NCBI GenBank assembly: GCA_014729015.1 | Contig: WJKR01000037.1 | Span: forward strand, 1 to 63,199 | Direction: 5' to 3' | Length of the DNA: 63,199 nt | Origin: Candidatus Woesearchaeota archaeon | GTDB taxonomy: Archaea; Nanobdellota; Nanobdellia; Woesearchaeales; WJKR01 | Shown here: piece after piece, positions 11,160 to 52,147 of the stretch | Layout: each line of letters opens with the position of its first letter | Position numbering within the stretch: position 1 is the first letter of the stretch | Notes under the pieces: generated by a model | What the model was told of the DNA's origin: nothing | What the model saw: the letters and a program-made list of their open reading frames with translations, nothing else | The model's database searches: none | Position numbers and translations under genes: made by a program

Positions 11160-11165
11160 GAAAAA

Positions 11166-11708: not shown

Positions 11709-11714
11709 TACAGC

Positions 11715-12748: not shown

Positions 12749-13260
12749 CTATCATGACCAGACCGACCACGAGGAGATCCGTCCCCTACCGCAGGAAACG
12801 GGCGGGGAAGACCAACTACAAGAAGCGGTTGGAACTCCTCAAGAGCAGGCAGCACCGGCTCGTCATCAGGAAGACGAACAAGCACGTCATCATGCAGATC
12901 GTCGATTACCATCCCGACGGCGACCGCGTCGTCGCCAGCGTGAGCAGCAAGCGGCTGGGACGCATGGGCTGGCAGCACTCGATGAAGAACATCCCCGCCT
13001 GCTACCTCACCGGACTGCTCCTCGCACGGGCGTCGAAGGAGCGCGACGTCGAAGCGGCGATCCTCGACCTCGGGCTCCAAACCCCTATCAAGGGGTCGCG
13101 GCTCTACGCAGCGCTGAAAGGGGCTATCGACGGCGGACTCGCCGTCCCCACTTCCGAGGACGTGTTCCCGTCAGCGGAACGCATCACTGGCGCCCACCTG
13201 CAGGACAAGGCGGTCGCAGAGCATTTTAACAAGCTCAAAGCACAGCTCACCACGGAATGA
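12745..13260 (+). CDS. rpl18: 50S ribosomal protein uL18
   Basis: The sequence reads VPYRRKRAGKTNYKKRLELLKSRQHRLVIRKTNKHVIMQIV. Confidence 0.94.
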   Translation: MTIMTRPTTRRSVPYRRKRAGKTNYKKRLELLKSRQHRLVIRKTNKHVIMQIVDYHPDGDRVVASVSSKRLGRMGWQHSMKNIPACYLTGLLLARASKERDVEAAILDLGLQTPIKGSRLYAALKGAIDGGLAVPTSEDVFPSAERITGAHLQDKAVAEHFNKLKAQLTTE

Positions 13261-14039
13261 TCATCATGGCAAACGACAAACATCGACGCACTCATGCGCG
13301 GGAACAACGAGACCCTCGGGCTTACCTCGAGGACTGGCAGCCGAAGACGGCGATTGGCACCCTTGTCAAGAACAAGGAGATAACTGACATCGACCAGCTA
13401 CTCGACAAGGGGATTGCTGTCCTCGAGCCGGAGATAGCCGACTCCTTGTTGGAGCTCGAGTCAGAGCTCCTTCTCATCGGCCAGAGCAAGGGGAAGTTCG
13501 GCGGCGGCCAACGACGCGTCTTCCGGCAGACCCAGAAGAAGACCATGGAAGGCAACAAGCCGAAGTTCTCAGCATACGCGGTGGTCGGGAACAAGGACGG
13601 CCATGTCGGCCTCGGACTGGGCAAGAGCAGGGAGACCATCCCCGCCCGTGAGAAGGCGATTAGGAATGCCAAGCTCAACGTGTTCAAGATACGGCGAGGC
13701 AGGGGTAGCTGGCAGGATGCGAGCGCCGAGCCGCACAGCATTCCCTTCGCCGTGGAAGGGAAGTGCGGCAGCGTCGTCGTCAGGCTCATGCCCGCACCGA
13801 AGGGGAAGGGTCTCGTTGTGGATCAGGAGATCGCGAAGATACTCTCGCTGGCCGGCATCAAGGATTGCTGGGCGAAGACGCGCGGCCAGGCCAAGAACAA
13901 GGTTAACATGATAAAGGCTACTGAGCGGGCGCTCCGGCAGCTGAGCAAGATGAAGATCAAGGCGGACCAGGTCGACCCGTTCAACATCGTCGAGGGCAAG
14001 CTGCCGGGACGGGAACCAGCGGAGGGTGAGGACGCATGA
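13257..14039 (+). CDS. rps5: 30S ribosomal protein uS5
   Basis: Motifs GGGQRRVFRQTQKKTMEGNKPKFSAYAVVGNKDGHVGLGLGKS and KAIRNAKLNVFKIRRG. The start may instead be 13266. Confidence 0.94.
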   Translation: MIIMANDKHRRTHAREQRDPRAYLEDWQPKTAIGTLVKNKEITDIDQLLDKGIAVLEPEIADSLLELESELLLIGQSKGKFGGGQRRVFRQTQKKTMEGNKPKFSAYAVVGNKDGHVGLGLGKSRETIPAREKAIRNAKLNVFKIRRGRGSWQDASAEPHSIPFAVEGKCGSVVVRLMPAPKGKGLVVDQEIAKILSLAGIKDCWAKTRGQAKNKVNMIKATERALRQLSKMKIKADQVDPFNIVEGKLPGREPAEGEDA

Positions 14040-37953: not shown

Positions 37954-38483
37954 CGAGGCGTGCCCAGGTACAGCAGGTGTTCGTGTACCTCTCAGCGATA
38001 CTCGTCATCGGGTTCGTCGTGCTCTTCGGCTACCGCATGGTCGACAAGATCCTCGACCAGCAGTGCGAGGTGAGCGAGCATTCCTTCATGGGCTCGCTCG
38101 AGGACGCCATCGACCGTAACGTGCACGCGCAGTCCGTGACTGACGTCGCGGTGCCCGCGCCGTGCAAGTACCAGCAGTTGTGCTTCGTGGACGCACGAGT
38201 AGTGGAAGGCTCCAGCACTTTCAACAACATCGATAATAGCTTGAAAGCGACGAACGCGGTCATGTGGGGAAATGCAATGGATGACATCGAATGGAACGTC
38301 TACCTCCTCATCCCGGGCAAGGAGACCAAGCCGATCATGTTCGACGACCGCATCACCACGACCGAGAAACCGATCGGCACAGCCGAGAAAGCTCACCTCT
38401 GCATCAACGCATCCTTGGGAGAATTCGTGTTCTGGGTGAAAGGAAAAGGCGACGGCGTATACCTCTACGCTGACGAGCGGTGA
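37950..38483 (+). CDS. type IV pilin-like protein 1 (class III signal peptide)
   Basis: The N-terminus is MTRRAQVQQVFVYLSAILVIGFVVLF. The ATG overlaps the stop of the upstream giant gene (ATGA). Confidence 0.7.
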   Translation: MTRRAQVQQVFVYLSAILVIGFVVLFGYRMVDKILDQQCEVSEHSFMGSLEDAIDRNVHAQSVTDVAVPAPCKYQQLCFVDARVVEGSSTFNNIDNSLKATNAVMWGNAMDDIEWNVYLLIPGKETKPIMFDDRITTTEKPIGTAEKAHLCINASLGEFVFWVKGKGDGVYLYADER

Positions 38484-39499
38484 TATCCGTGGCCCGACGA
38501 GCGCAACTCGGCATACAGTTCAACTGGCTCTTCGTACTCATCATCGGCGCCATCATCCTCGCGTTCTTCATCACCCTGATCAACAACCAGCAAGAAAAGG
38601 CGGGCGCCGAGGAGGCGACGGATCTCGTTGAGAGCCTCGATACTGTTTTTACCGTCATCAACACCGAACCGGACACGTACGACGCGTTCCCCATCCCGGA
38701 CGCGGAGGTCGAGTTCACGTGCGAGCCGGGACTGTCGCAATACTACATCCAAGGAGCGGGACCGATCGACACGACGTACGACCCCATCTTCACGCCCGAC
38801 GTGCTCAGGGGGGACACCATCATGAGCTGGACGATGACATGGGGCATCCCCTTCGAGGTCGCCGTGCTCACCTTCCTCGCCAACGACCGCACATTGTTCG
38901 TGTTCGCCAGCGATGAGCAGGACGGCTTCGTCAAGGCCATGGCGGACGAGCTCCCGGAACAGTTCCCCCGACAAACCACCAGTGTCAGCAACATCGGCGG
39001 CGCGCTGCTCGAGCGCGGCTACTCGCGCTACGTGGTCATCACGGACAAAGCTGTGAAGAGCATGGTGCCCACCGAGCTGTGGGACGTCACCTATGTCCGT
39101 CACATCAACCCCCTGGGCAATGGCATCGACTCGTACGGTCAGATAAAGTTCTATGACGCATCGACACGTGAGGTCACAGAGCCGTACTTCACCGAGGCGC
39201 TGGCGTGGGGAGCGGTCTTCGCCCAAGACGCCGACGCGTACCGGTGCGCCGCCAACAAGACGCTCATCCACCTCCAGGTCATCAGCACCATCCTCGAGCG
39301 ACGCGCGCGCGCCATCGCCCAGGAGCTTGGCGCATTGAGCTTTTGCTATGACAACTTCCTGCTCGTCGCCGATTCCTTTCAGGACTTCGCGGACGACCCC
39401 TCCTTCGACAAAGCACGGACCTTCCACAGCCATCGACAGACCATCGAGAACTACCAGAAAATCTCCTTGAGAGGATACAGATGCCCGGACCTGTACTGA
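38480..39499 (+). CDS. type IV pilin-like protein 2
   Basis: The N-terminus is ..ARRAQLGIQFNWLFVLIIGAIILAFFI. There is a GTGA overlap with the previous gene. Confidence 0.7.
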   Translation: MISVARRAQLGIQFNWLFVLIIGAIILAFFITLINNQQEKAGAEEATDLVESLDTVFTVINTEPDTYDAFPIPDAEVEFTCEPGLSQYYIQGAGPIDTTYDPIFTPDVLRGDTIMSWTMTWGIPFEVAVLTFLANDRTLFVFASDEQDGFVKAMADELPEQFPRQTTSVSNIGGALLERGYSRYVVITDKAVKSMVPTELWDVTYVRHINPLGNGIDSYGQIKFYDASTREVTEPYFTEALAWGAVFAQDADAYRCAANKTLIHLQVISTILERRARAIAQELGALSFCYDNFLLVADSFQDFADDPSFDKARTFHSHRQTIENYQKISLRGYRCPDLY

Positions 39500-39999
39500 G
39501 ACGAGGACAATTGCAGATAGGGGAGAGCATGATCGTCATCATACTCATCCTCATCATCGGCGTCTTCGCATTGGTGTTCTTCGCGAACATGACCAAGGCC
39601 AAATACCAAGTCCGGCTCGGGCAGTACGAGGACCTCAACGCCGTGGAAACAGCGCACATCGTGAACAGCCTGTACGAGCTGCGCTGCGCCAAGACGGGCG
39701 CCACAGAGGTGTGCGTGGACAAGCACAAAGCATTGGCGTTCGCGCAACTGCAACAAGACGAACCCGAACTAGTGAATGATTACTACTTCGACCTGTTCCG
39801 TTACTCCAGGATCGAGCTGCAGGAGATCTATCCAGAAGGGCACAATTACACCTTGTACGAGGTGAACGCGTCCAGCCAAGGACAGGTCGTCAAGGCGTTA
39901 GTCATGCCCGTCGCGATCTACAACAACTCCGCCGGCACCAACAGCTTCGGCATCCTCAGCGTCGAGCGGTTCTACACCAGGAGGTCGTCCACCACGTGA
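39481..39999 (+). CDS. type IV pilin-like protein 3
   Basis: The N-terminus is VLRRGQLQIGESMIVIILILIIGVFALVFF. It overlaps the previous gene by 19 nt. Confidence 0.7.
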   Translation: MPGPVLRRGQLQIGESMIVIILILIIGVFALVFFANMTKAKYQVRLGQYEDLNAVETAHIVNSLYELRCAKTGATEVCVDKHKALAFAQLQQDEPELVNDYYFDLFRYSRIELQEIYPEGHNYTLYEVNASSQGQVVKALVMPVAIYNNSAGTNSFGILSVERFYTRRSSTT

Positions 40000-40505
40000 G
40001 ACGCGCGCAGATAGAGATAATGGGGCTTGTCATGGTCGTCGTCCTGGTCACCATAGGCATATTCTTCAGCGTCGCGCTTAAGAAGCCGACGCCTGACCGC
40101 ACCCCTTTGGAGGTGTACGGCAACGAAAAACTAGCGAACAACTTCCTGATCACCCTGCTGGAGTCGCAGACCGCGTGCGGGCCGAAGGTGCGCGACGTCG
40201 CCGTCGACTGCGTCCGCGACGCGCAGACGGGCCAAACAGGACGCTACGCCTGTGATGGGAAGCAATCTTGCGATTACTTGGCTACTATCGCTAACCACAC
40301 CCTTGACAAGACGCTGAAACGCTGGAACTACCGCTACAACCTCACGTTCACCTACACGGCCGGGGATACCATACAGCTCTTCAGCCCCCTGACCAACGGC
40401 GACTGCACGCCCCAACAGAAGCAGACCGCACCCGGCATACAACCCATCTCCTTGTTCCGCGTCGCGCCGGGAAAAGCGATGCTGACGCTGAGAATCTGCG
40501 ACTGA
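39996..40505 (+). CDS. type IV pilin-like protein 4
   Basis: The N-terminus is MRRAQIEIMGLVMVVVLVTIGIFF. There is a GTGA overlap, and an SD aggaggt lies 9 nt upstream. Confidence 0.7.
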   Translation: MRRAQIEIMGLVMVVVLVTIGIFFSVALKKPTPDRTPLEVYGNEKLANNFLITLLESQTACGPKVRDVAVDCVRDAQTGQTGRYACDGKQSCDYLATIANHTLDKTLKRWNYRYNLTFTYTAGDTIQLFSPLTNGDCTPQQKQTAPGIQPISLFRVAPGKAMLTLRICD

Positions 40506-40512
40506 CCGCAAC

Positions 40513-40522
40513 ATTTAAATAT
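40513..40522 (+). promoter_or_regulatory. internal TATA box ahead of the mini-pilin triplet
   Basis: catttaaata sits in the only sizeable gap of the upstream half of the array. It is followed by SD tgaggtga 8 nt before the ATG at 40567. Confidence 0.5.
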
Positions 40523-40566
40523 TCTCTTCTCGTGGTTTGGACAATAATCGTGAGGTGAAAAACTCC

Positions 40567-40824
40567 ATGAAACAAGGCCAAGGGCTCTCCATGAACGTCA
40601 TCATCATCGCAGCCATATCCCTGTTGGTGTTAGTAATCATCAGCGTCTTGGTGCTCAGAGCGGGCGGCGACGTCAGTACCGGCACGGGGTGCGAAGGCAT
40701 CGGTGGACAATGCGTGCCGTCAGAATCAGGATGTCCTGACGGCTTCCGCCATGACGTCGTCCATAATTGCAAAGGGCGCGAGAACGAGGGCAAGATTTGC
40801 TGTATCCCAGAGAACTTCGAGTGA
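40567..40824 (+). CDS. mini pilin-like protein A (85 aa) with 6-Cys module
   Basis: The sequence is MKQGQGLSMNVIIIAAISLLVLVIISVLVL, then C-x6-C-x6-C-x10-C-x8-CC. I prefer the ATG at 40567 over the TTG at 40537. Confidence 0.7.
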   Translation: MKQGQGLSMNVIIIAAISLLVLVIISVLVLRAGGDVSTGTGCEGIGGQCVPSESGCPDGFRHDVVHNCKGRENEGKICCIPENFE

Positions 40825-40829
40825 ATTAC

Positions 40830-41087
40830 ATGAACGACAAACGAGGCGTCGAGCTCTCCTTTAACCTCATCATCGTGGCTATCGTCGCCCTGTTGGTCCT
40901 CGTCGTGGTCGTCTACCTCATCGCCAACCAGTCAGGCAACGTCAGGCAAGGAACCCTGTGCGTCAAGCACGGCGGGCGATGCGTTGAGAAGCTGGCGGAT
41001 TGCTCCACATACCAGATCCAGAACACCGATGCCACGAAGCCGCTCTGCAAACCCGGCGTGTGCTGCAGCCTTGTTCCTAAGGAGTAA
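40830..41087 (+). CDS. mini pilin-like protein B (85 aa) with 6-Cys module
   Basis: The sequence is MNDKRGVELSFNLIIVAIVALLVLVVVVYL, then C-x6-C-x6-C-x13-C-x4-CC. I trimmed it from track ORF 40767. Confidence 0.7.
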   Translation: MNDKRGVELSFNLIIVAIVALLVLVVVVYLIANQSGNVRQGTLCVKHGGRCVEKLADCSTYQIQNTDATKPLCKPGVCCSLVPKE

Positions 41088-41099
41088 CGAGGGAATTGC

Positions 41100-41651
41100 A
41101 TGGACAAGAAAGGCCAGACGTTCAAGTATGTTCTGGAAGCGGTCGTGTTCTTAGCGTTGCTCTTCGTCATCCTCCACTTCGTCTTCGGTATCGGCGCCTA
41201 TGGCAGCTCATTGACCAAGTGCGAGGCGACCAAGGGCACGTGCAGGATCGTCTGCGACCCGGGCGAGACCGAGCTCGACCACTCATGCAGGCAGCGACGA
41301 GGAGGCCTGCTCAGCGGCGAAGAGGAGCAAGCTGTAGAGAAGGTGTGCTGCTTCGACGCCGCCGACGTGCTCGGCGTCTCCTCGGACAGCGTTGAGGCGC
41401 CGGAAGACCTGAGCACGCTCGAGACCAAGGCAGAGGTGCAGCCGTACATCAACGCGCTCACCACCCACATCTGGGAGGAAGCAGCAGCGCATTCAGGACT
41501 ATCGGTCGACGACGTGCGCCAGGCCAACAAGGACGATAACGGCGACCCGAACCCGTTCACCCTCAAGCAGGACTACCACTACCCCGGCTATGCTGAGGAC
41601 CAGGAAGAACTCAACCGCCTCACAAACCACCGGGACCAGCTCTCCTCGTGA
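41100..41651 (+). CDS. pilin-like protein C (183 aa) with related 6-Cys module and acidic C-terminal extension
   Basis: The sequence is MDKKGQTFKYVLEAVVFLALLFVIL, then C-x6-C-x3-C-x10-C-x19-CC. Confidence 0.7.
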   Translation: MDKKGQTFKYVLEAVVFLALLFVILHFVFGIGAYGSSLTKCEATKGTCRIVCDPGETELDHSCRQRRGGLLSGEEEQAVEKVCCFDAADVLGVSSDSVEAPEDLSTLETKAEVQPYINALTTHIWEEAAAHSGLSVDDVRQANKDDNGDPNPFTLKQDYHYPGYAEDQEELNRLTNHRDQLSS

Positions 41652-41674
41652 ACAGGCGTCCCCCCCAATAGGAA

Positions 41675-41683
41675 CTTTTAAAA
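41675..41683 (+). promoter_or_regulatory. internal TATA box in pilin array
   Basis: ttttaaaaa lies in the 76-nt gap after 41651, about 45 nt upstream of the micro-ORF ATG at 41728. Confidence 0.4.
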
Positions 41684-41727
41684 ACTCGCCGTGCTGAGGA
41701 AGACATCGACATAGCAGGTGCTCTACC

Positions 41728-41841
41728 ATGAATGACAGGCGCGGATGGGAGATGACCAGGACTGTCATCATCATCGCAGGCATCGCCCTCCTCATCCTCG
41801 TCATCATCTTCGTGCAACAAGCATACAACAACATCGGCTGA
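41728..41841 (+). CDS. 37-aa micro-ORF consisting almost only of a class III-like signal/helix (hand-translated)
   Basis: The product is MNDRRGWEMTRTVIIIAGIALLILVIIFVQQAYNNIG. An SD-like gcaggtg lies 7 nt upstream. It fills the gap between neighbouring genes exactly. Confidence 0.5.
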   Translation: MNDRRGWEMTRTVIIIAGIALLILVIIFVQQAYNNIG

Positions 41842-41847
41842 TCAGGC

Positions 41848-43227
41848 ATGGACAAGCAAGGATTATGGGCGCTCACCGTCTTCGGCAAGTACATCTTAGC
41901 GCTCGCCTCGCTCATCGCCATCGTCGCCTTCATGTACACCCTCTTCGCCGACATCGAAGACCAATCGGTCGAGCAGGCGTGCAGGACGTCCATCATCACC
42001 AGAGGAGAGTTCAAATTCGGCGTGTTCAACAAGAAGGAGACGGCCAGCCTGCTCAAATTTGACAACATCTACCCTGTCCAGTGCAAGACGCAATCGGTCA
42101 TCGTCCCCGTGGACGAGCCGCCGAGGACCGCCCACGCCTCGGAAGTGCAGGAGCTCATCATGGACGACGTCGCCGACCTCATGGCCAAGTGCTGGTGGAT
42201 GTTCGCCCAAGGCCAGTACCACGACATCCTCGACGACCCGGGCAAGGACGACCAGCTCTGCCATGTGTGCTACTCCTTCACCATCGACCCCGACCTGGAC
42301 GACTACGAGCCTATCGATGTCGAAGAAGACTTCCTACCCTTCCTGTCCACGCACCCGTACCGGCCAGGACTCCTGCAAGGAGGGAACGCCCTCATCGGCG
42401 GCATCGATGACTACGAGTACCAACCGCAAGACGTCTTCGAAAGCACGAGGAAGACGAGGAGGCTGAACGAGGAACGGCTCCTCAACAGCCGCGCCGTGCT
42501 CAGAGGCGGCGTCGCGGACTTCTCAGGACTCTTCACCGAGGACCAACCATCACTGGAAAAGCTGCAACAACACCTCTCCTCGCTCGCCGGCGACGGGCTC
42601 ACCGTGGTCTACGTCATCGTACCCAGCCTGCCAGAACGCACGTTCGAGGACGACACCGACCTCGGCTTCAGGATCATCGACGAATGGCAGCTCGGCATCG
42701 ACGACAGGGAGAACGCCGCCGTCTTCCTCTTCTCGTTGAACAACGGCATCCTCCACTACGCGACCCAGTTCGGCGCGGACGCCGTCCTGCCCGATTACAT
42801 CCTCCAAGGGTTGTTCGAACCAACAGTAGGACCGTACATGGCTGTGAAGAAACCCAAGACGGCGATCCTCGAGTTCTCACAATCACTGAGCGACCTCGTC
42901 AGTGAGTACGGCGAGGAGAACGTCAAGCAAACACTGCTGTTCCAGCGCAGCTACGTCGCCTACATCACCGGCGGCAAGCAAGGAGCGACCTCGCCAGTAG
43001 CGCCGAAAGACACCGCAAAAGGAGCGATCAAGTACGACAAGGACGACGTGGAGACGATAGAGCAAGGGAAGGCGTACGCTATTTCCTACGTCTCGACGAA
43101 GTGGCGCGGCTGCACCTTCTTAGTCTCCTTCTGCAAGAGCAGTAATCCCAACGCGATAGGGCTCTCCACGCACGACAGCCTCTTCTCGCAAGGAGCGATC
43201 TGCAACATGTACACGGAGGACGGGTGA
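41848..43227 (+). CDS. pilin-like protein with TPM (TLP18.3/Psb32/MOLO-1)-like domain
   Basis: The N-terminus is MDKQGLWALTVFGKYILALASLIAIVAF. The segment GGVADFSGLF...GLTVVYVIVPSLP...IIDEWQLGIDDRENAAVFLFSLNNGILHYATQFGADAVLPDYI matches the TPM-domain pattern. Confidence 0.65.
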   Translation: MDKQGLWALTVFGKYILALASLIAIVAFMYTLFADIEDQSVEQACRTSIITRGEFKFGVFNKKETASLLKFDNIYPVQCKTQSVIVPVDEPPRTAHASEVQELIMDDVADLMAKCWWMFAQGQYHDILDDPGKDDQLCHVCYSFTIDPDLDDYEPIDVEEDFLPFLSTHPYRPGLLQGGNALIGGIDDYEYQPQDVFESTRKTRRLNEERLLNSRAVLRGGVADFSGLFTEDQPSLEKLQQHLSSLAGDGLTVVYVIVPSLPERTFEDDTDLGFRIIDEWQLGIDDRENAAVFLFSLNNGILHYATQFGADAVLPDYILQGLFEPTVGPYMAVKKPKTAILEFSQSLSDLVSEYGEENVKQTLLFQRSYVAYITGGKQGATSPVAPKDTAKGAIKYDKDDVETIEQGKAYAISYVSTKWRGCTFLVSFCKSSNPNAIGLSTHDSLFSQGAICNMYTEDG

Positions 43228-43234
43228 TACTGCG

Positions 43235-43381
43235 ATGAGACGCATGCACAAGCAAGGACAAGAGGGCGACCCCATGACGAGCGGGTTCAGCGTGACGTGG
43301 ATACTCATCGTCCTCGCCATGCTCTTGTTGCTCATTATCATCTTCGCCAAGAAGCTCAACCTCGACTTCCTCTTCGGGTGA
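43235..43381 (+). CDS. 48-aa micro-ORF with class III-like N-terminus (hand-translated)
   Basis: The product is MRRMHKQGQEGDPMTSGFSVTWILIVLAMLLLLIIIFAKKLNLDFLFG. It lies 7 nt after the previous stop and 5 nt before the next start. Confidence 0.5.
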   Translation: MRRMHKQGQEGDPMTSGFSVTWILIVLAMLLLLIIIFAKKLNLDFLFG

Positions 43382-43386
43382 CCACC

Positions 43387-44271
43387 ATGAGAAAACGCAA
43401 ACAAGGAGGCATGTTCGGCCAAATCACGAAGATAGCGTTGCTCACAGTCTTCCTCGCAGTTCTCGTCATCGTATTCTTCTCAGGGCCAGGAGCCGTGTTC
43501 GACAGCATCAAACGGATGATCCCGACGCCGACCGACTGGGTGTCCAGGGACGGGTACGACAACCCTGACGTGAACTCGCGAGAAGCGCAAGACCTCGCAG
43601 ACAAGGCCGCGGCCAAGATCGGCGCGGCGTACCACCACCTCGCCGAGGACCCATACACGGACGGCTGCTTCTACTATTTATCCAACAAGGAAATATCCTA
43701 TCTCGACAAGTACGAGCTCCACGTCAAGGACACCGGCAGCGGCGTGCATCTCTCCCTCCGACGACCCACGGCGACTGAGGAAGGCACCGTCGAGTACAGC
43801 CCCATCTTCGACACGGAGATAGAAGGCGTGGAACCCTGCCTGGTCTATGGAGAACCAGAAGCGAAGCACTTCTACGACTACTGGTTGGCTGGCGAAGCCT
43901 CGCATCCAGGCAATCATTTCAGGGTCTTCGACGAGTACTACGTCACCGGCAAGCGCATCGTCATCATAGGGGGCGACGAGGCCAAGCTGCGCTGGGAAGG
44001 CAAGGACAAGCAAGCACAGAAATCGTTCATCCTCTACAAGTACGGCGATAATATTTGCATGTTTCCGTCGAAAGCGCATACATTCGATCTTTTCACGCTC
44101 CGCTGCCAGGCGCGGGATGACTTGCTCGACCGCGACTGCTTCCGCCCAGGCGCGAAATCATCGCTGCATAACATGCCGTCAAACGACAAGCTCGCCGTGT
44201 GGAGCGCCGGCAAATGCCGTAGTTTCGCTGACACATTAGGATTACCAACAGGAGAAGGAGGGATATCATGA
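43387..44271 (+). CDS. type IV pilin-like protein
   Basis: The N-terminus is MRKRKQGGMFGQITKIALLTVFLAVLVIVFF. I trimmed it from track ORF 43297. Confidence 0.65.
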   Translation: MRKRKQGGMFGQITKIALLTVFLAVLVIVFFSGPGAVFDSIKRMIPTPTDWVSRDGYDNPDVNSREAQDLADKAAAKIGAAYHHLAEDPYTDGCFYYLSNKEISYLDKYELHVKDTGSGVHLSLRRPTATEEGTVEYSPIFDTEIEGVEPCLVYGEPEAKHFYDYWLAGEASHPGNHFRVFDEYYVTGKRIVIIGGDEAKLRWEGKDKQAQKSFILYKYGDNICMFPSKAHTFDLFTLRCQARDDLLDRDCFRPGAKSSLHNMPSNDKLAVWSAGKCRSFADTLGLPTGEGGIS

Positions 44272-44726
44272 ACAAACAAGGAGGAACATTCTCGACACTC
44301 TCAAAGGCCATCCTCGCCTTTACGCTACTCGTCGTGCTCTTATTCGTCGCCATCGACCCGTTCAGCAACGTCGCTAACTTCTTCATCAAACGAGCAGCGC
44401 TGGAAGACGCCGATTATGACCGGGACGGCAAGCTCGACGAGATCGGCGGCAGGTCCTATGACGAGTCGCCCTGCGTGTACGGCGAAGCGGTCGTCGAGAT
44501 AGCTGGCAAGTCAGAATACCTGTACGAGCTCGCCAACAACGGCGATTGCAACTTCCCAGAGATGGCCGCGCAAGGCGTCACGCTCGTCAAGATGATCGAC
44601 ACCTCGACCAACCCGCCACGAGAGGTCTGCATCTATCCCTATAAGGTGTGCCAACAAAACCTCGAAGCGTACCACGACAAGCTCATCGCGGAAGAGAAGG
44701 CGAGGAGAGAAGCAGAGAAAGGATAA
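44268..44726 (+). CDS. type IV pilin-like protein with Ca-binding-loop-like motif
   Basis: The N-terminus is MNKQGGTFSTLSKAILAFTLLVVLLFV. A DYDRDGKLDE (DxDxDG) loop is present. There is an ATGA overlap. Confidence 0.65.
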   Translation: MNKQGGTFSTLSKAILAFTLLVVLLFVAIDPFSNVANFFIKRAALEDADYDRDGKLDEIGGRSYDESPCVYGEAVVEIAGKSEYLYELANNGDCNFPEMAAQGVTLVKMIDTSTNPPREVCIYPYKVCQQNLEAYHDKLIAEEKARREAEKG

Positions 44727-44732
44727 GATAGC

Positions 44733-45977
44733 ATGCATCACTACCGACAAAAAAGAGGTTCGACACTACTCCTGGAAGTCATCATCGGCATCGTGATATT
44801 CGTCGTGCTCTTCTTCTCCACCTTCAAAGTTGCCAAGGATATCCTCGTACAAGAAGAAGCATGGCAGGAATCCTACCTGGAATTCGGCGAGCAGCTCGCA
44901 CAGATCGGCGGCGGCACGGTCGGCGAAGGCGGGAACTACCTGCTCAAGCTCAACGACGACTCGGCAGTCATCGGCCTCAACCCTGTCATGGACAGGGACT
45001 ACTACGACGTCCTCGGCGTCCAGCAGGATGCCACGAAGAAGGACATTAAAGAAGCCTATGACCAGCTCGTCGATATCTACGACCCGGAAGATCCGGCGAG
45101 CCGGCAGCCGTTAGCAGAGCTCGAGAAAGCGTACGACGTCCTCAGCGACCAAGAACGGAAGGAAGACTATGACGCCAGCGAGGCGTTCACCCACCGCAAC
45201 GGTCGGTTCGGAGACGGCGACTTCCACATCGTCTTCGCCAGAAAGAACATTGCCTTCGACTACGACCTCGTCAGCTTTCAACGGCCGGCGGTATGCGCCG
45301 CAGACCAAGCATGCCTCTGCCTGTGCAACGACCCGAAACTCATCGAGGTCACCGAGGAATACGCTGATGAACAAGCCATAAACATGGGCCATCCGACGCC
45401 GTACGACGCGGCATCGCTCTCGAAGCATCACGATGACTACGCCAGGGACGTCGCCAGCGCGAGGCAGCGAGCGATCGAATGCGGCCGCACCGAGTGCGTC
45501 GAGCTCGGAAGCTTCTTCTTCCACTCACCCACATCCTCGAAGCATCACTCCAGGCTCTACCAACCATCGACGGACACGCAGATGATCACACCCTACATGT
45601 ACGAGAACGGGTTCGCCATCGCCCGATCAGAAGAGAAGAACGAGCAACGGCAAGACCTTGACGAAAGAAGAAGGATCGAACTATGCTCCATGCACGAATG
45701 GCTCGGCTACGCCGACCAGCTCCCCCCCGCAGTGCCGCTCGTCATGCGCGTCTACCGGCCGGTGACGGTCGGCGGTAATCCGACCGTGGCGGTATGCATC
45801 CACTCGGACTGCCTGGTAGAACTGCAGGAAGCGGTCGAGGAAGACTACGAGGACAACCGACTACCGATCTCGCCCGAAGAAGAGCTCCGATACCTCAACA
45901 CAAAAGATTCCTGGACAAAAAAAGACAGTGAGCGAGCCGCAGAGCTCGAAGCGCTCATCGAAGCATCCCGAGAGTGA
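44733..45977 (+). CDS. pilin-like protein carrying a J-domain-like segment without HPD
   Basis: The N-terminus is RQKRGSTLLLEVIIGIVIFVVLFF. Residues 88-147 read DYYDVLGVQQDATKKDIKEAYDQLVDIYDPEDP...LEKAYDVLSDQERKEDYD. Confidence 0.65.
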   Translation: MHHYRQKRGSTLLLEVIIGIVIFVVLFFSTFKVAKDILVQEEAWQESYLEFGEQLAQIGGGTVGEGGNYLLKLNDDSAVIGLNPVMDRDYYDVLGVQQDATKKDIKEAYDQLVDIYDPEDPASRQPLAELEKAYDVLSDQERKEDYDASEAFTHRNGRFGDGDFHIVFARKNIAFDYDLVSFQRPAVCAADQACLCLCNDPKLIEVTEEYADEQAINMGHPTPYDAASLSKHHDDYARDVASARQRAIECGRTECVELGSFFFHSPTSSKHHSRLYQPSTDTQMITPYMYENGFAIARSEEKNEQRQDLDERRRIELCSMHEWLGYADQLPPAVPLVMRVYRPVTVGGNPTVAVCIHSDCLVELQEAVEEDYEDNRLPISPEEELRYLNTKDSWTKKDSERAAELEALIEASRE

Positions 45978-45983
45978 AGCCCC

Positions 45984-46862
45984 ATGACGCTCTTCTCTGA
46001 CAGACGAGGAAGCAACAGGATATACTTGCTCCTCATCTCTCTCACCATCACCGCGATCGTGCTGGTCATGACCTTCAACGTCGCGATCAAGCACTCCCGC
46101 GGCAAGTCCTATCAGCTCAACTTCTACGCGCAGGACATCTCACTCCTGCTCGAATCAGTGCAGGCGGTGCCCGGCGATATCACGCTCTCCTATCATTTAC
46201 AAGAAGGATTCGTCGTCCTCCTCCGAGAAGAAGAGCTCGAAGTGGTGTACAAGCCGTCAGGACTGTCCAAGACCAAGCACTACCACGTCCTCCCAGGCAT
46301 GCGCGTACAACCACAAACGGTCGAGGAATTCCTCACCATCACCAAGCGGGACGACCAGCTCGGCATCACCACTGAGCCCCCATCGGCACGACAAGGATGC
46401 CCGCCGCTCATAGGCCTCGACCCGTCAACGCTGGATATCACCGTCACCACTGAGCCCCCATCGGCGACCAGTCCGATCGGCACCGACCAGCTCGCCCGCA
46501 TCAAGGAGGGCTTCGAGTTCCTCGTCGCCAGCGAGCAAGGAACGGCTACTCCGCAAAACGCCGTCTCACTCGCCATCACCATCACCGCGCGACCATCCAC
46601 GGACGGGCTCAACTCGCTCTTCGTCGAACGACCCGAAGCAAGAGGAGACATGGAGAACAACTACCAACACTTCTTCTGCGCATTCCTCGAACACCTCGAC
46701 GACGCAGATATCACCGTGAGGGAGTCGCTCGTCCTCAGCCCCACTGACGACTATGAGTTCAAGCTTATCTTCGCCGTCACCCCGGACAACGCAGTCCTCG
46801 CAAACAGGCATACGTACGCCGACGCCTTCATCAACGCACTGACCGAGGAGGTGAGCCCATGA
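45984..46862 (+). CDS. type IV pilin-like protein
   Basis: The N-terminus is SDRRGSNRIYLLLISLTITAIVLVM. An internal (I/V)TTEPPSA direct repeat lies 26 codons apart (22-nt identical DNA at 46366 and 46444). Confidence 0.65.
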   Translation: MTLFSDRRGSNRIYLLLISLTITAIVLVMTFNVAIKHSRGKSYQLNFYAQDISLLLESVQAVPGDITLSYHLQEGFVVLLREEELEVVYKPSGLSKTKHYHVLPGMRVQPQTVEEFLTITKRDDQLGITTEPPSARQGCPPLIGLDPSTLDITVTTEPPSATSPIGTDQLARIKEGFEFLVASEQGTATPQNAVSLAITITARPSTDGLNSLFVERPEARGDMENNYQHFFCAFLEHLDDADITVRESLVLSPTDDYEFKLIFAVTPDNAVLANRHTYADAFINALTEEVSP

Positions 46863-47338
46863 ACAACAAGGGAGAAGGATTCCTCCTCAGCCTCGAGATC
46901 ACGTTCATGATTGCCACGCTGTTCTTCCTCATCTTCGGCATCGTCATGCTCCAGACAGTGATCGGCTTCGCCAAGGCAGAGAACAAGTACGCCGACGAGA
47001 TACGCTACCAGGCCTATGCCTACCAGCTCGTCAACGCACCCGCATGCTTCGCGCACGGACAACCAAACAGGGCAGAACAATACGTCATCGACCTGGACAA
47101 AGTCGACCGGGCGACGCTCGAAGCGTGCCTGCCGCAGAACGCCGCGCACGTACCGCTCCCCGTCTCCCTCACGATCAGGAATTACGAGACCCGCACCAAG
47201 ATGACCGTGAACACCACGTCATGGGACCCCGCCGCGCAACCACGATACGCCAAGGGCTTCCCCGTCACAATCAAAGATGGGACTGCCATGGAAGAAGGCC
47301 GTATCTCCTTCCTCGGCGTCGGAGAGAGGATACAATGA
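46859..47338 (+). CDS. type IV pilin-like protein
   Basis: The N-terminus is MNNKGEGFLLSLEITFMIATLFFLIF. There is an ATGA overlap. Confidence 0.65.
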   Translation: MNNKGEGFLLSLEITFMIATLFFLIFGIVMLQTVIGFAKAENKYADEIRYQAYAYQLVNAPACFAHGQPNRAEQYVIDLDKVDRATLEACLPQNAAHVPLPVSLTIRNYETRTKMTVNTTSWDPAAQPRYAKGFPVTIKDGTAMEEGRISFLGVGERIQ

Positions 47339-47865
47339 CCACGATATGGAAGAGCAAGAAAGGGTTCATGGACAAGTTCATCGACTTCATCGTCGCCCTC
47401 ATCATCTTCGCTCTCACCGTCGCCCTCATCACCATCATCTTCCTCGCCAACAACGACACCAAGCAGTCACGGCTCGCCTATGAGGACACGATGGAGAAGG
47501 TCCATGCGTCCCGCGTCATCAACGACTTCACCGACTTCGCCAAGAGAGACTGGTCAACCGGCAAGCCCATCGGCGGCCCCACCGCCACCCTGCTCCGACA
47601 CTACGAAGAGCAAGCGCAACGAGAACTCATCAAAGAACAGATACAAGAATACTTCGGCAGCTACTACGCCGGCTACAAGGTTCTCATCACCTACGACGAC
47701 GAATATGATACTATCATCCAGTACACCACGAACGAACGAGGAGGAGGACCGGTCATCGCTGCCACCGCCGTCCCCCTACAAGACGGCGTCGCCGTCATCC
47801 GCCTCATCACGTTCGACGCCGCACGTGCGGCAGCCATCTATCCAACACAAGTGCCATTTAAGTGA
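47335..47865 (+). CDS. type IV pilin-like protein
   Basis: The N-terminus is WKSKKGFMDKFIDFIVALIIFALTVALITIIF. I trimmed it from track ORF 47044. There is an ATGA overlap. Confidence 0.65.
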   Translation: MTTIWKSKKGFMDKFIDFIVALIIFALTVALITIIFLANNDTKQSRLAYEDTMEKVHASRVINDFTDFAKRDWSTGKPIGGPTATLLRHYEEQAQRELIKEQIQEYFGSYYAGYKVLITYDDEYDTIIQYTTNERGGGPVIAATAVPLQDGVAVIRLITFDAARAAAIYPTQVPFK

Positions 47866-50800
47866 ACACCATGCGAGCCAAGCATCTCAACAACAAGAAG
47901 GGCGTCATCCAGAACAGCCTCATCGCTATCGGCTTCCTCATCGCCGTGACCATCGTCGCCACCAGCTACCTCATAGCGAAGTCCTCCCTGGACGAGAAGC
48001 CCATAGGCATGGCGCAGTCAGCAGTCCTCCAGATAGCGCACGAAGGCGACAAGGCAGTCGCGTACCTCGATCAGGCAGTATCGATGGCGGAGAACACGGC
48101 GGTCAAGGACTTCACCCAACAAGGAGGCATGGTCATGGACTTCGAAGACGGCACCTATCTCTGCGGCTCGTTCATGAACAGGACGTACCTCTACACCCAA
48201 GGACAGGATTGTATCCCCAACCCTTCAAAGACCTTCCAATACTTCTTCGACGCAGCGCTGTTCACCTCATTATCAGCGCACAAGACATATCCTTACCCCT
48301 CATTCATCACCACCATCGTCGATGATAACGACAAAACCGTCATTACTGGCCAAGCGACCGAGCCGTTCACCTTCACATTCGGCGGAGGCGGCAAGGCGGC
48401 CTTCAAGCTGATGGGCAAAGAACCGTTCATCCCCGACTACCTCGGCGCCCAGCAACCAGTCACGCTCAACTACTTCAACAGGGGCGGCACGCCGGTGAGT
48501 TACATCGTCGTTCACTACACCGTCACGGACACCGCGATGCGAGCCATCGACGTACTCCGACGGCGAGGGCTCAGCTATCACTACGTCATTGACCATGACG
48601 GCACCGTCTACCAGACAGTCCCGGAATCAGGCTCTGCCCAGCACGCGGGTTGTCCCACGGCGAGCTACGGCAGGAGCTACTGCAAGCGGACGAACATGAA
48701 CCGGCCTTCCATCGGCATCAGCTTCGCCAACATGGGCTACAAGACCAGCGGGTGCGACGATGAATACCAGGACTGGTACCAGGACAGCGACGTCTGCTGG
48801 GAACCGTACACGCAAAGACAGCTCGACAGCTTCGTCAACCTCGTCGCAGACATCACCCAACGACACCCCGCGCTCGTAGAAGACGGCAGGTTCAAGGAGA
48901 GCCAGATGATCATGCACTCGGACGTCGCCACGGTCAAAGTAGACCCCGGACCGGACTTCACCCGCCAACAAGAAGACCTTATCCAACGCATCAACGACAA
49001 GATGATCACCACGACTCGTACGCCGACGAAGACTACCACGACGGCCAACGAAGCCACCATCGTCGCACCGACGCCCGAGCGGGAAGCGCGGCTCGAGGAC
49101 TACGAGCCACACATAGCCGAGTACGGCGAAACATACCACGTCGACGACGCGCTCATCAAGGCCGTCATCCTCCAATCATCAGGAGCGCGACCGAACCACA
49201 AGGGCCCGGAAGGCAACCTCGGACTCATGCAACTCCTCCCAATCTCCACCACCGGCAGGTCGATTAACCACGAGTTCTGCGTCGACCGGTGCGGCTTCTC
49301 AGCAACGTACGACGAAGCGGAATACTACGACCCGGAGAAGAACATCTGCTGCGGCACGGCGCTGCTCGCAGGCCTGGCCAAGCAGCAACCACTGCCGCGG
49401 GTCTGCTGCGAACAGGACGACGTCGCGGACTGCCCGGAGAACGAGGACTACCAGCAACCCTACCACGTCGCCGCGCAGCACTACCTCCTCAAGACATGCG
49501 ACGGCTGCAAGCACTGCGTCGACGAGGACTACGTCGCAGACGTAATGCGACTCTACGAGTACTACGGCGGCACCCACGGCCAGTTCACCGTGGATGAGGA
49601 CGCGGCGTTCGAAGCCACCTATACCATCCCGCTCTCATTCACCACCGTCGCGGACTTCGACCTCTCCTCGTACGACGAAATCGCGGCCTTCGCGAGGAGC
49701 ATCAGCGACGACTGCACCGATTATCCCCGGCGCTGCGTCCAAGAACACGTCACCAGCCACAACGCGCACGCGACGCATTACCGCGCAGACACGGCGTGCG
49801 AGGATAACGAACTCCTCCAATCATTCGTCCAACACCTCGACGCCTGCTCCTACACCCAGGACCGGCAGCCATGCTCCTTCACCCTCCCAACAACGAGCAT
49901 CACCGAACCATTCATCATCAGAATCAACGGGAGCGGCGTCTGGGAAGAGACGCTCAAGAAGACGTTGCTCGGTACCCGAATCCTCGCCACACGACCCATC
50001 ATCAGACGCGAAGGGCTTGACTACGCTGACTTCGGCAGCGGCCCGGAAAGGACGAACATCACCATCTACTTCCGAGAGGACAGGGACGGCGAGCAACTCC
50101 TCGACTTCAAGTTCAACGGGAAATTCCATGACCGGTCACAGGACAACGATCGACCACTCAACATAACGACGTTCACCTTCTTCCGCGACGACGAAGACAA
50201 CCTGATCTTCTCCTATGAGGAACTGCCGGGGAGCGTGCAAGCGCCCATCCTCTCATACCTGTTCTGCATGGAACCACTCCGGCAAACAAGCACCGCCAAC
50301 CACAACTTGTCATTCGCACTGCTCCTCCAAGACCGCGTCCCGCCGCCTGTCACCGGCCTTCAAGCAGCCTACACCCCCGCCCTGCAAGTCTTCGAGCTCC
50401 AATGGACCCCGGTCACGCAGTACGACGACGGCAAGCAGGTCCCGGACATCGCGGCCTACAAGGTCTACTGCAGCGAGCAGCCGTTCACGCAGCACCAACC
50501 GGTGCCGCCCAGCGCTTACGTCGCGAGCGTCAAGCGATCGAACAAGGGGTTCTTCCCCCCGGCAGCCTACCAGCAACAAGGCGTCATGTCATTCCCGCTC
50601 GAACGCTGCGGCGGCAAGCCCATCAGCAACTACATCGACGACCAGACGCAGACCATGTCCCTCCTGTACGTCGCGGTCACCGCGGTGGACGGCGCAGGTC
50701 AGTACAACAAGACGTATCCTTCAGTGACGCTCAGCGCTGACCTGACCCAGGCGCTCCAGTTCCCGCCAAACATGCCGGAACAGGCGAATGAGGTCATCGA

Positions 50801-50939
50801 ACCCTCGCTCGGCCGGTTCACCTCCTTCCACCAGGAGATTCCTGACGAGTACCAGCTAGTGATAGACATCCTCGGAAGGTATTACAGCGGCTACTTCCCC
50901 ATGCCCCTGTTGGAAGAATCGCCGGACCCACCCGCATAA
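47862..50939 (+). CDS. pilin-like N-terminus fused to peptidoglycan amidase (Amidase_2), SLT-like and FN3-like domains (1025 aa)
   Basis: - The N-terminus is NNKKGVIQNSLIAIGFLIAVTIV.
- Amidase_2 motifs: YIVVHYTV, YHYVIDHDGTVYQ, AQHAG, PSIGISFAN, IMHSDV..KVDPGPDF (~48480-48960).
- SLT-like segment: ALIKAVILQSSGARP..GNLGLMQLLP...DPEKNICCGTALLAGL (~49108-49570).
- FN3-like segment: ELQWTPV...YKVYC...LYVAVTAVDGAGQ (~50335-50710). Confidence 0.8.
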   Translation: MNTMRAKHLNNKKGVIQNSLIAIGFLIAVTIVATSYLIAKSSLDEKPIGMAQSAVLQIAHEGDKAVAYLDQAVSMAENTAVKDFTQQGGMVMDFEDGTYLCGSFMNRTYLYTQGQDCIPNPSKTFQYFFDAALFTSLSAHKTYPYPSFITTIVDDNDKTVITGQATEPFTFTFGGGGKAAFKLMGKEPFIPDYLGAQQPVTLNYFNRGGTPVSYIVVHYTVTDTAMRAIDVLRRRGLSYHYVIDHDGTVYQTVPESGSAQHAGCPTASYGRSYCKRTNMNRPSIGISFANMGYKTSGCDDEYQDWYQDSDVCWEPYTQRQLDSFVNLVADITQRHPALVEDGRFKESQMIMHSDVATVKVDPGPDFTRQQEDLIQRINDKMITTTRTPTKTTTTANEATIVAPTPEREARLEDYEPHIAEYGETYHVDDALIKAVILQSSGARPNHKGPEGNLGLMQLLPISTTGRSINHEFCVDRCGFSATYDEAEYYDPEKNICCGTALLAGLAKQQPLPRVCCEQDDVADCPENEDYQQPYHVAAQHYLLKTCDGCKHCVDEDYVADVMRLYEYYGGTHGQFTVDEDAAFEATYTIPLSFTTVADFDLSSYDEIAAFARSISDDCTDYPRRCVQEHVTSHNAHATHYRADTACEDNELLQSFVQHLDACSYTQDRQPCSFTLPTTSITEPFIIRINGSGVWEETLKKTLLGTRILATRPIIRREGLDYADFGSGPERTNITIYFREDRDGEQLLDFKFNGKFHDRSQDNDRPLNITTFTFFRDDEDNLIFSYEELPGSVQAPILSYLFCMEPLRQTSTANHNLSFALLLQDRVPPPVTGLQAAYTPALQVFELQWTPVTQYDDGKQVPDIAAYKVYCSEQPFTQHQPVPPSAYVASVKRSNKGFFPPAAYQQQGVMSFPLERCGGKPISNYIDDQTQTMSLLYVAVTAVDGAGQYNKTYPSVTLSADLTQALQFPPNMPEQANEVIEPSLGRFTSFHQEIPDEYQLVIDILGRYYSGYFPMPLLEESPDPPA

Positions 50940-50986: not shown

Positions 50987-52147
50987 ATGCTCAACCTACC
51001 CATAGAGGACATCATACAAAAAATCACCGAAGCCACGGACAAGTCAGCGGATGACGTCAAGCAGCAGATCAAGCAGAAGCTCGACGAGCTCTCAGGCCTC
51101 ATCTCAGAAGCAGGAGCGGCGCACATCGTCGCGAACGAGCTGGGCGTCAAGCTCATGGAACCGCAAGGGCCGATCACCGTCGACAAGGTGCTGCAAGGCA
51201 TGCGCAACATCGACATCGTCGGCAAGGCGAGACAAGTCTATGAGGTACGAGAGTTCAACACGGAGAAGAGGAGCGGCAAGGTCGGCAACTTCCTCCTGAC
51301 GGACAAGACCGGCACCACCCGCGTGGTACTCTGGAATGACCACACCGAGTGCATGGAAGGCCTCGAGCCAGGGGACGTGGTCAAGATCACCGGCGCCTAC
51401 GCCAGGGAGAACAACGGCCGCGTCGAAGTACATTTAGGACGCGAGTCCAAGCTGTACAGGAACCCTGAAGGCGTCACCGTCGACGTGGACATCGATGCCA
51501 CTCCTGCGCAGACCGCGACCAAGAAGAAGATTGTTGAACTCACAGAACAGGACCAGAACGTGACCGTCACGGCCACTATCGTGCAGGTCTTCAACCCACG
51601 GTTCTTCGCCGTCTGCCCGAAATGCAACGCCCGCATAGGGGAAGATAGCACGTGCGCGACGCATGGTAACATCGAACCAACATATAATTATGTCATGAAC
51701 CTCTACCTCGACGACAGCAGCGACAACATCCGCTGCGTCCTGTGGCGCGAGCAGATCGAGCGGCTGCTTGGCAAGGACCGGGAAGCGGTGCTCGCATTCA
51801 AGGAGGCCCCCGCGGCGTTCGAGGAATACAAGACCGACCTGCTCGGCAGGATTGTCAAGGTCCGCGGCCGCGTCAAGCAAAACGAGGCGTTCGGCCGGTT
51901 AGAGCTCGTCGCCTATGATATCGACAAGGAAGTCGACCCAGAAAAAGAGGTGGCGGAGCTCCGACACCAAGAGAAAAAGCAACGGTCAGAAGTGGTGGAG
52001 AAGGAGACCGTCAACGCAACGGTCGACGATGACGACAAGGCAGAGTCGGTCACCGCCAAGCAAGAGACGACGCTCAAAGACAAGTCGTCGCCTGAGGAGG
52101 AAGTGTTCACCTTGGACGACGTCGAAGACCTGGAAGAACTGGACTAG
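50987..52147 (+). CDS. rpa: replication protein A (ssDNA-binding, OB folds plus Zn ribbon)
   Basis: OB-fold segments read NIDIVGKARQVYEVREFNTEKRSGKVGNFLLTDKTGTTRVVLWND and VTVTATIVQVF. A Zn ribbon reads CPKCNARIGEDSTCATHG. The tail is acidic. Confidence 0.85.
   Translation: MLNLPIEDIIQKITEATDKSADDVKQQIKQKLDELSGLISEAGAAHIVANELGVKLMEPQGPITVDKVLQGMRNIDIVGKARQVYEVREFNTEKRSGKVGNFLLTDKTGTTRVVLWNDHTECMEGLEPGDVVKITGAYARENNGRVEVHLGRESKLYRNPEGVTVDVDIDATPAQTATKKKIVELTEQDQNVTVTATIVQVFNPRFFAVCPKCNARIGEDSTCATHGNIEPTYNYVMNLYLDDSSDNIRCVLWREQIERLLGKDREAVLAFKEAPAAFEEYKTDLLGRIVKVRGRVKQNEAFGRLELVAYDIDKEVDPEKEVAELRHQEKKQRSEVVEKETVNATVDDDDKAESVTAKQETTLKDKSSPEEEVFTLDDVEDLEELD

Follow-up and report, generated by a model that had tools for sequence, protein, structure and literature searches.

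A predicted surface-tethered murein amidase carrying a lytic transglycosylase-like domain without its catalytic glutamate, encoded at the end of a gene array in a woesearchaeon

Introduction

Large extracellular murein transglycosylase proteins of Woesearchaeota and Pacearchaeota have already been published (fam00969, PMC8204110; PMC9723730). Castelle et al. (PMC8204110) placed the family in a module of 51 families, mostly unknown, that is specific to the lineage and proposed that its members bind or degrade bacterial walls. Vigneron et al. (2022; PMC9723730) described Woesearchaeota genes for a "large lytic murein transglycosylase" (GH23) and made a case for predation. More widely, peptidoglycan hydrolase homologues were detected in ~5% of archaeal genomes, being particularly prominent in Nanoarchaeota, and two haloarchaeal enzymes were found to kill a bacterium, in a study that took Sec and Tat signals alone into account (Strock et al. 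2025; PMC12352652). Here, we analyze a gene of this general kind, located at positions 47862 to 50939 (plus strand) of a 63,199-nucleotide stretch of DNA, contig WJKR01000037.1 of the Candidatus Woesearchaeota archaeon assembly GCA_014729015.1, to which we refer below as the window. Its product fits the description of fam00969, to which we liken it on that basis (1025 amino acids, a lytic transglycosylase [SLT] domain, and named relatives annotated as Woesearchaeota, Nanoarchaeota, or "archaeon"): it has in common with those proteins the lineage, the large size, a predicted extracellular location, the SLT/GH23 domain, and the proposed binding or degradation of walls.

A prepilin-type N-terminus joined to a large functional module, displayed on the surface or on a fiber, is known from the sugar-binding proteins of the Sulfolobus bindosome and from bacterial "modular" type IV pilins such as PilB and PilC of Streptococcus sanguinis. 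Compared with those proteins, the window protein would carry as its cargo a pair of wall-hydrolase folds, its N-domain shows no pilin fold, and no assembly machinery was found nearby. Woldo, Danwoldo, and the other archaeal hydrolases of PMC12352652 are, like the window protein, archaeon encoded and aimed at bacterial peptidoglycan (in our case, a predicted target). However, the Woldo/Danwoldo type comprises small enzymes, secreted through Sec or Tat, with classical peptidoglycan-binding domains and a demonstrated ability to kill bacteria, whereas the window protein is predicted to be tethered to the cell by a class III-type N-terminus and contains two hydrolase folds, one of them apparently dead.

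Murein hydrolases in such archaea are thus not new in themselves; a preliminary description of this DNA had presented them as a surprise, and while the enzymes are real, they had already been published for exactly this lineage. What does appear to be new is a shared class III-type anchor and N-terminal domain (N-domain), the presence of an amidase partner, a fixed place behind a gene array, and the loss of the catalytic glutamate in the window orthologue only. Neither PMC8204110 nor PMC9723730 mentions an Amidase_2 domain, a class III-like N-terminus and N-domain common to the family, or the array position, and, in contrast to the proteins described there, the window member lacks the Glu that defines an active transglycosylase. 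A link between hydrolases and class III signals or a pilin-like array is absent from these two papers and from PMC12352652, as well as from surveys of archaeal type IV filaments (PMC4858521; bioRxiv 10.64898/2026.04.22.720090), and our literature search found no paper connecting Woesearchaeota, pilins, and peptidoglycan. As argued below, we consider it probable that the gene encodes a surface-tethered murein amidase in which the Glu-less SLT domain serves as a glycan-binding module that engages bacterial walls.

Results

Gene model and module order

The open reading frame (ORF) comprises 1025 codons from a GTG start at 47862. In the NCBI annotation, it starts at ATG 47871, which yields a 1022-amino-acid protein titled [quoted passage not shown] Residues are numbered here from the GTG throughout, and all features of the gene are on the plus strand. 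From the N-terminus onward, the protein consists of a class III (prepilin-type)-like signal with its hydrophobic helix (47871 to 47996); a family-specific N-domain of ~160 amino acids, built from helices and a small beta-sheet and containing two near-invariant Cys residues (47997 to 48476); an Amidase_2 domain of the zinc N-acetylmuramoyl-L-alanine amidase type, recognized by Pfam, by PDB sequence match, and by fold (48486 to 48953); a Thr/Pro-rich linker (49011 to 49073); an SLT/GH23-like domain with a lysozyme fold (49086 to 49580); and two C-terminal modules. The first of these, C1 (49581 to 50270), begins with an alpha/beta part, continues with a beta-rich one, and is found behind the SLT domain in most SLT-carrying relatives. 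The second, C2 (50271 to 50816), begins near a conserved VPPPV motif and is a beta-sandwich, FN3/Ig-like by fold only. With 39 family sequences as input, AlphaFold2 produced a model of the protein with a mean predicted local distance difference test (pLDDT) score of 86.5 and a predicted template modeling (pTM) score of 0.72. The protein contains 24 Cys residues, many of which are conserved in the family alignment.

All motifs quoted in the preliminary description (IVVHYT, IMHSDV, KVDPGPDF, YHYVIDHDG, AQHAG, SIGISFAN, GLMQLLP, DPEKNICCGTALLAGL, and ILQSS) are present in the translation. The Thr-rich linker that it placed between the two enzymatic domains is real and predicted to be disordered, with pLDDT values of <50 at model residues 386 to 397. 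The module that it called FN3-like held up in part: the C-terminal region of the model is beta-rich (residues 668 to 980), and Foldseek returned weak matches to tandem FN3/Ig proteins (E ~1e-4, low TM-scores), but the window protein had no Pfam match to FN3, even at E ≤ 1. As to the two enzymatic domains, the profile check that had been suggested, against PF01510 and PF01464, gave matches above the gathering cutoffs for both.

The amidase domain

Judged by its residues, the amidase is a coherent enzyme of the T7 lysozyme/peptidoglycan recognition protein (PGRP) type, with a complete catalytic set. The PF01510 match (E = 8.2e-27; 94.6 bits against a cutoff of 26) extends over residues 209 to 364 and covers profile positions 2 to 131 of 131. 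Among PDB sequences, the domain matched AmpDh2 of Pseudomonas aeruginosa (E = 1e-13), and a Foldseek search with the model retrieved AmpD (2y2b; 2.5e-8) and AmiD (3d2y; 8.6e-8) of Escherichia coli, the AmpD/AmiD matches ranging from 2.5e-8 to 1e-7. NCBIfam returned only partial matches of the window protein, to EmtA, AmpD, and MltC, all of them far under the cutoffs.

Alignment with the AmpDh2 motifs bears out the three zinc ligands proposed earlier for an intact-looking amidase, His218 (codon at 48513), His352 (48915), and Asp361 (48942), which are also the dominant residues at these positions in 119 related domains; Lys359 (48936) is present within a K-x-D-P-G motif. In the alignment with T7 lysozyme, the SYHY sequence of the window protein faces GYHF, placing Tyr239 (48576) on the catalytic Tyr46. 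The numbering of the T7 lysozyme sequence used here reproduces the published residues H17, Y46, H122, K128, and C130. Compared with AmpD-type enzymes and T7 lysozyme, then, the zinc ligands, the Tyr, and the Lys are all in place. The position at which AmpD-type enzymes have a catalytic Glu (E116 of AmpD) is occupied by Ser287. Among the 119 related domains, 43 have the Tyr without the Glu, 56 have the Glu without the Tyr, and none has both; since Tyr239 and Glu287 are mutually exclusive, assignment of the domain to the T7 lysozyme/PGRP type appears coherent. In addition, the six closest full-length relatives have 41 invariant amidase positions in common, and the window protein matches them at every one.

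The window protein thus shares with AmpDh2, AmiD, and AmpD, its best sequence and fold matches, the zinc ligands and the K-x-D-P-G motif, and AmpDh2 and AmiD are themselves membrane tethered and act outside the cytoplasm. Unlike these enzymes, it has the T7 lysozyme/PGRP-type Tyr239 rather than the AmpD-type Glu, and its amidase is part of a 1000-residue, multidomain, predicted surface protein of an archaeon.

The SLT-like domain

The match of the second enzymatic domain to PF01464 (E = 6e-9; 35.9 bits against a cutoff of 21.3) involves residues 418 to 508 and only positions 3 to 82 of the 117-position profile. Its sequence matched that of MltE (EmtA) of E. coli in the PDB (E = 1e-5), and Foldseek assigned the same fold (MltE, 2y8p, 2.4e-6; also Slt70, MltC, and MltF). 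The GLMQ motif and the Cys pattern are kept. As had been proposed from the ILQSS sequence, the catalytic Glu is missing. Position-by-position alignment to MltE and to the relatives puts Ser439 (codon TCA, 49176 to 49178) at the Glu site (E64 of MltE), with Gln438 in place of the usual His/Gln before it; an E-to-Q substitution was considered and rejected, as it is Ser439 and not Gln438 that falls on the Glu site. Since the change from TCA to a Glu codon takes at least two base changes (two to GAA, three to GAG), a single-base error is excluded as the source of this difference.

Glu occupies the site in 71 of the 72 SLT domains of the family, and the window protein alone has Ser. As the family alignment stands, the loss is a peculiarity of the window orthologue and not of the family. 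The YN motif is affected as well: Tyr541 is kept, and another residue takes the place of the Asn (L542 or T545, depending on which of two alignments is used). At the same time, of the 35 SLT positions at which the six closest full-length relatives do not vary, 31 have been retained, those lost being E439, R539, N545, and E559. The ratio of window-to-relative identity to relative-to-relative identity is 0.81 for this domain and ~1.0 or higher for the others. General decay was rejected as an explanation in view of the 31 retained positions, the control orthologue P0004 likewise differing at 4 of 35; by this comparison, the weight of the loss lies in which residue changed and not in the number of changes. 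The window SLT domain looks like one that is folded and still under selection, without catalysis, and because the Glu and part of the YN motif have been lost while 31 of 35 invariant positions have been kept, it is most likely a binder and not a cutter.

Family-1 lytic transglycosylases have one catalytic residue only, a Glu, and the E64Q variant of MltE has been deposited in the PDB as an inactive mutant (6ghy). Compared with MltE, its best sequence and fold match, with which it shares GLMQ, the window domain has Ser for Glu, has lost the Asn of the YN motif, and contains a Cys-rich insertion between the motifs.

The N-terminus and N-domain

The N-terminus (MRAKHLNNKKG/VIQNSLIAIGFLIAVTIVATSYLIA, the slash marking putative cleavage after Gly14, at 47901 to 47903) has a short basic region with Gly at position -1, followed by an uncharged hydrophobic helix (NNKKG/VIQNSLIAIGFLIAV). 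A basic residue precedes the hydrophobic core in 84 family members, and 72 of these have N-[KR]-[KR]-[GA] directly before the core, Gln being the commonest residue at position +1. By its residues and placement, this is the archaeal class III signal pattern, for which a simple membrane anchor would have no use. The N-domain that follows has no Pfam or NCBIfam match; when modeled alone with 51 sequences (pLDDT 86.9), it consists of a long helix (residues 9 to 42), a second (47 to 83) and a third (118 to 135) helix, and a small sheet. The best-scoring pilin-type model for this protein and the array proteins was ComGC, at an E value of 0.046, far short of the cutoff.

Relatives and origin

The family was gathered by an exhaustive profile search of representatives, which yielded 11,741 proteins at E ≤ 1e-3 and 53 at E ≤ 1e-30. 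A word-indexed homologue search was far less productive, returning 3 matches among 8000 candidates for the full protein, 1 for the amidase domain alone, and 3 for the N-domain alignment. The N-domain is present in ~100 of the best 150 cluster representatives, and the architectures among these 150 are N-domain-amidase-SLT-C1-C2, which is that of the window protein, N-domain-amidase (~350 to 400 amino acids), N-domain-SLT-C1-C2, and longer combinations. Judged by this domain order, the window gene is a bona fide member, at full length, of a modular family of predicted extracellular cell wall hydrolases. Relatives place 3D, NlpC/P60, and GDSL modules on the same N-terminal anchor, and because of this variety, murein would be the most economical common target.

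All members with an organism name come from archaea (Woesearchaeota, Nanoarchaeota, or "archaeon"). In bacterial loci (Fimbriimonadia, Armatimonadetes), the match is confined to part of the amidase domain, at 31 to 42% identity; overall, the nearest bacterial or phage amidases show ~30 to 42% identity across all or some of the domain, and phage amidases do not exceed ~31%. Recent acquisition from known phages was ruled out on the latter figure. With the named members archaeal and the bacterial and phage amidases this distant, the hydrolase modules are, as far as these comparisons reach, old residents of the archaeal lineage. The suggestion of a horizontally acquired module is accordingly not borne out as far as recent transfer is concerned, the modules being family-wide in Woesearchaeota and Nanoarchaeota.

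Several relatives differ from the window protein in the way in which their modules are combined. Two loci (L007, 9962 to 12750; L009, 9929 to 13002) have a short amidase gene, encoding the N-domain and the amidase only, followed by a separate ORF, for which Pfam identifies a 3D domain in L009 and nothing in L007. At a third locus (L006, 3033 to 7277), amidase, 3D, and GDSL domains are fused in a protein of 1414 amino acids, and protein P0014 combines NlpC/P60, SLT, and amidase domains. In a sub-branch of the full-length proteins, comprising P0008, P0009 (which is L004, 10040 to 12907), and P0010, another Cys-rich segment (HES/VES/LET ... LTGC.W) replaces the SLT-type segment; Pfam sees no SLT domain in that of P0009, and the family profile aligns the segments of P0009 and P0010 to the SLT region. 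Four of the loci that have the hydrolase-array arrangement of the window (L003, L005, L006, and L009) are titled "uncultured Methanosarcinales archaeon" (third-party annotation assemblies). One of them, L003, shares the gene order of the window, including a downstream ORF the size of replication protein A and a 655-amino-acid ORF the size of an ABC-2 transporter, and we believe the "Methanosarcinales" labels of all four loci to be probably wrong.

Gene array and genomic context

The hydrolase gene is the last in an array on the plus strand, preceded by ~14 tightly packed genes (37950 to 47865), most of which encode class III-like N-termini (mostly a basic stretch, Gly or Ala, and a hydrophobic stretch). 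The genes are packed or overlapping: 37950 to 38483, 38480 to 39499, 39481 to 39999, 39996 to 40505, 40567 to 40824, 40830 to 41087, 41100 to 41651, 41848 to 43227, 43297 to 44271, 44268 to 44726, 44733 to 45977, 45984 to 46862, 46859 to 47338, and 47335 to 47865. The end of the array is marked by the next gene, which encodes replication protein A (RPA; OB folds and Rep_fac-A_C; 50987 to 52147, plus strand). L001 and L002 likewise have RPA as the right-hand neighbor of the hydrolase gene, and so, judging by position and size, does L003. In seven loci, the hydrolase gene closes a class III-signal array or lies close to its end, and 5 to 11 class III-type ORFs precede it in L001, L003, L004, L005, L007, and L009. 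Because this position recurs in seven loci, a functional link between hydrolase and array, which had been suggested from the placement of the gene alone, gains support.

Within the array, the genes at 40567 to 40824, 40830 to 41087, and 41100 to 41651 are tandem paralogues whose products have a class III-like N-terminus and a small Cys-rich head (C..G.C...C...CC). Three similar small genes (88, 75, and 83 amino acids) are present in L001. These paralogues are candidate major or fiber subunits of whatever the array produces. A 414-amino-acid array protein (44733 to 45977) with the class III-like N-terminus RQKRG/STLLLEVIIGIVIFVV contains a DnaJ (J) domain (PF00226; E = 1.5e-12; residues 89 to 147), which is odd for an apparently exported or surface protein. 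The gene at 41848 to 43227 encodes a protein that has a TPM_phosphatase domain (E = 2e-9) and a basic/hydrophobic N-terminus, and such a protein is also encoded in the array of L001 (2674 to 4005).

Upstream of the array are four consecutive giant ORFs (17923 to 37953, plus strand) of 1997, 1058, 1276, and 1726 amino acids, almost without Pfam matches. The last of them encodes repeated Cys-rich units (CGDG..PGE.CD) and, at the C-terminal end, a membrane helix with a tail rich in Lys and Pro, and its stop codon overlaps the first array gene. Together, the giant ORFs, the array, and the hydrolase gene make up a cell surface island of ~33 kb on one strand.

The window as a whole is core archaeal chromosome. 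It contains genes for ribosomal proteins L3, L4, L2, L22, S3, S17, S4e, L5, L18/L5e, and S5, for SecY, and for RPA, as well as a 505-amino-acid ORF (737 to 2254, plus strand) that matches both the small and the large primase subunits, i.e., a fused PriS-PriL primase; this fusion is known from Nanoarchaeum-type archaea. The archaeal host assumed in the preliminary description is thereby substantiated on the same 63-kb contig as the hydrolase gene. The AT skew over the ribosomal protein operon on the plus strand (2001 to 14000) is strongly positive, at 0.37 to 0.44, far above that of the rest of the window. Scans of the window for tRNAs and against Rfam gave no matches.

Discussion

The way in which such a protein might work can be pictured as follows. 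Once exported and processed, the N-terminal helix would hold the protein outside the archaeal cell, either in the membrane or in or on an assembly of the ~14 upstream products. The zinc amidase, its residues complete, would cut the bond between N-acetylmuramic acid (MurNAc) and L-Ala in bacterial peptidoglycan and thereby remove stem peptides. The SLT domain, most likely no longer able to cleave, would bind glycan strands and position the amidase, with the C-terminal beta-sandwich modules acting as spacers or additional binders. In this way, a DPANN-type archaeon might make contact with bacterial walls, anchor itself to them, or open them locally.

Several observations weigh against this picture of a surface-tethered amidase with a glycan-binding SLT module. 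Ser at the Glu site could be tolerated by another mechanism, and since the window lineage is represented by a single sequence, E439S stands on that one sequence. With regard to display, a Foldseek search with the N-domain model found nothing better than an E value of 0.43 in the PDB or 0.11 in BFVD; no pilin or archaellin model of Pfam or NCBIfam matched the window protein or the array proteins; and the Pfam scan of the large window ORFs turned up no ATPase, platform protein, or prepilin peptidase of a type IV pilus. Given these negatives, the notion in the preliminary description that the protein is delivered by a filament is not supported, and its term "pilin-like" is justified by the class III-type N-terminal motif and not by any match to a pilin fold or profile. 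The murein direction of the effector that it envisaged fits the family, whose relatives bear 3D, NlpC/P60, and GDSL modules on the same anchor. "Class III-signal surface protein" is a supported designation on the strength of the motif; "subunit of a filament" would be suggested by the gene order and by the small Cys-rich paralogues as possible fiber subunits. We regard it as possible, and put it forward tentatively, that the array builds a type IV filament-like or bindosome-like organelle specific to Woesearchaeota and Pacearchaeota, with the largest, terminal subunit a modular "pilin" whose wall hydrolases grip and open bacterial walls. The same negatives (an N-domain without a pilin fold match, array proteins without a pilin profile match, and no assembly ATPase, platform, or peptidase) would also suit a plain membrane-tethered ectoenzyme, whose N-terminus is a signal anchor or bindosome-like tether and whose neighbors are co-regulated surface proteins that form no filament; indeed, archaeal class III signals are also found on non-pilus proteins, such as the sugar-binding proteins of Sulfolobus. 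Such an anchor would not, however, need the N-K-K-G/A motif kept in 72 of 84 relatives, and both the recurrence of the array-end position in seven loci and the presence in the array of tandem small Cys-rich genes typical of fiber subunits argue in the other direction, which leaves the ectoenzyme a conceivable but doubtful alternative.

What the two domains do to which polymer might also be read differently. The certain loss of the SLT catalytic Glu invites the idea of a pure adhesin in which both domains are noncatalytic, lectin-like wall binders used for attachment, and noncatalytic Amidase_2 homologues do exist, many animal PGRPs among them. Those PGRPs typically lack one of the zinc ligands, though, whereas the window amidase has the full triad, Tyr239, Lys359, and all 41 invariant positions, so that we find this idea unlikely. 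Its opposite, an SLT domain that still cleaves glycan by means of another acidic residue or the Ser itself, could draw on the 31 retained invariant positions and the confident MltE-like fold model; it is very unlikely, considering that the missing Glu is the single catalytic residue of the class and is kept in 71 of 72 relatives, that MltE E64Q (6ghy) was deposited as inactive, and that the Asn of the YN motif is gone, too. The substrate might be a different glycan-peptide polymer, such as the pseudomurein of a host methanogen or some constituent of the envelope of the archaeon itself, and co-occurrence of Woesearchaeota with methanogens is reported in a passage of PMC9723730 that cites earlier work. 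Against this are active-site residues that are those of MurNAc-L-Ala amidases, relatives that add the murein-specific 3D, NlpC/P60, and Glu-containing SLT domains, and the absence of Mur-type synthesis genes among the window ORFs scanned. Pseudomurein, moreover, contains no MurNAc, and its beta-1,3 linkages resist lysozyme-type enzymes; a non-murein substrate therefore seems rather improbable. Finally, both catalytic domains are typical of bacteria, as would be expected if a bacterial gene had been misassembled or misbinned into an archaeal genome. This we consider next to impossible, given that the same contig harbors the archaeal ribosomal operon (with S4e, L18/L5e, and SecY), the fused PriS-PriL primase, and RPA, that the hydrolase-RPA neighborhood recurs in independent assemblies, and that the named relatives are all archaeal; bacterial contamination was likewise rejected on account of the archaeal core genes on the contig.

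To our knowledge, every DPANN archaeon in culture has another archaeon as its host. The family described here offers a concrete handle on whether the very abundant Woesearchaeota and Pacearchaeota live on bacteria: its abundant, predicted surface-tethered murein hydrolases, with their fixed place behind a pilin-like operon, are open to biochemistry, imaging, and co-occurrence analysis. The window protein itself represents a natural experiment, in which an intact amidase is combined with an otherwise conserved SLT domain without its catalytic residue, suggesting a shift from cutting to binding. If the array does build an organelle, it would provide a molecular basis for episymbiosis or predation of an archaeon on bacteria, and the transglycosylase of the window protein would then be a noncleaving glycan clamp, moving the device away from lysis and toward stable attachment combined with the stripping of peptides.

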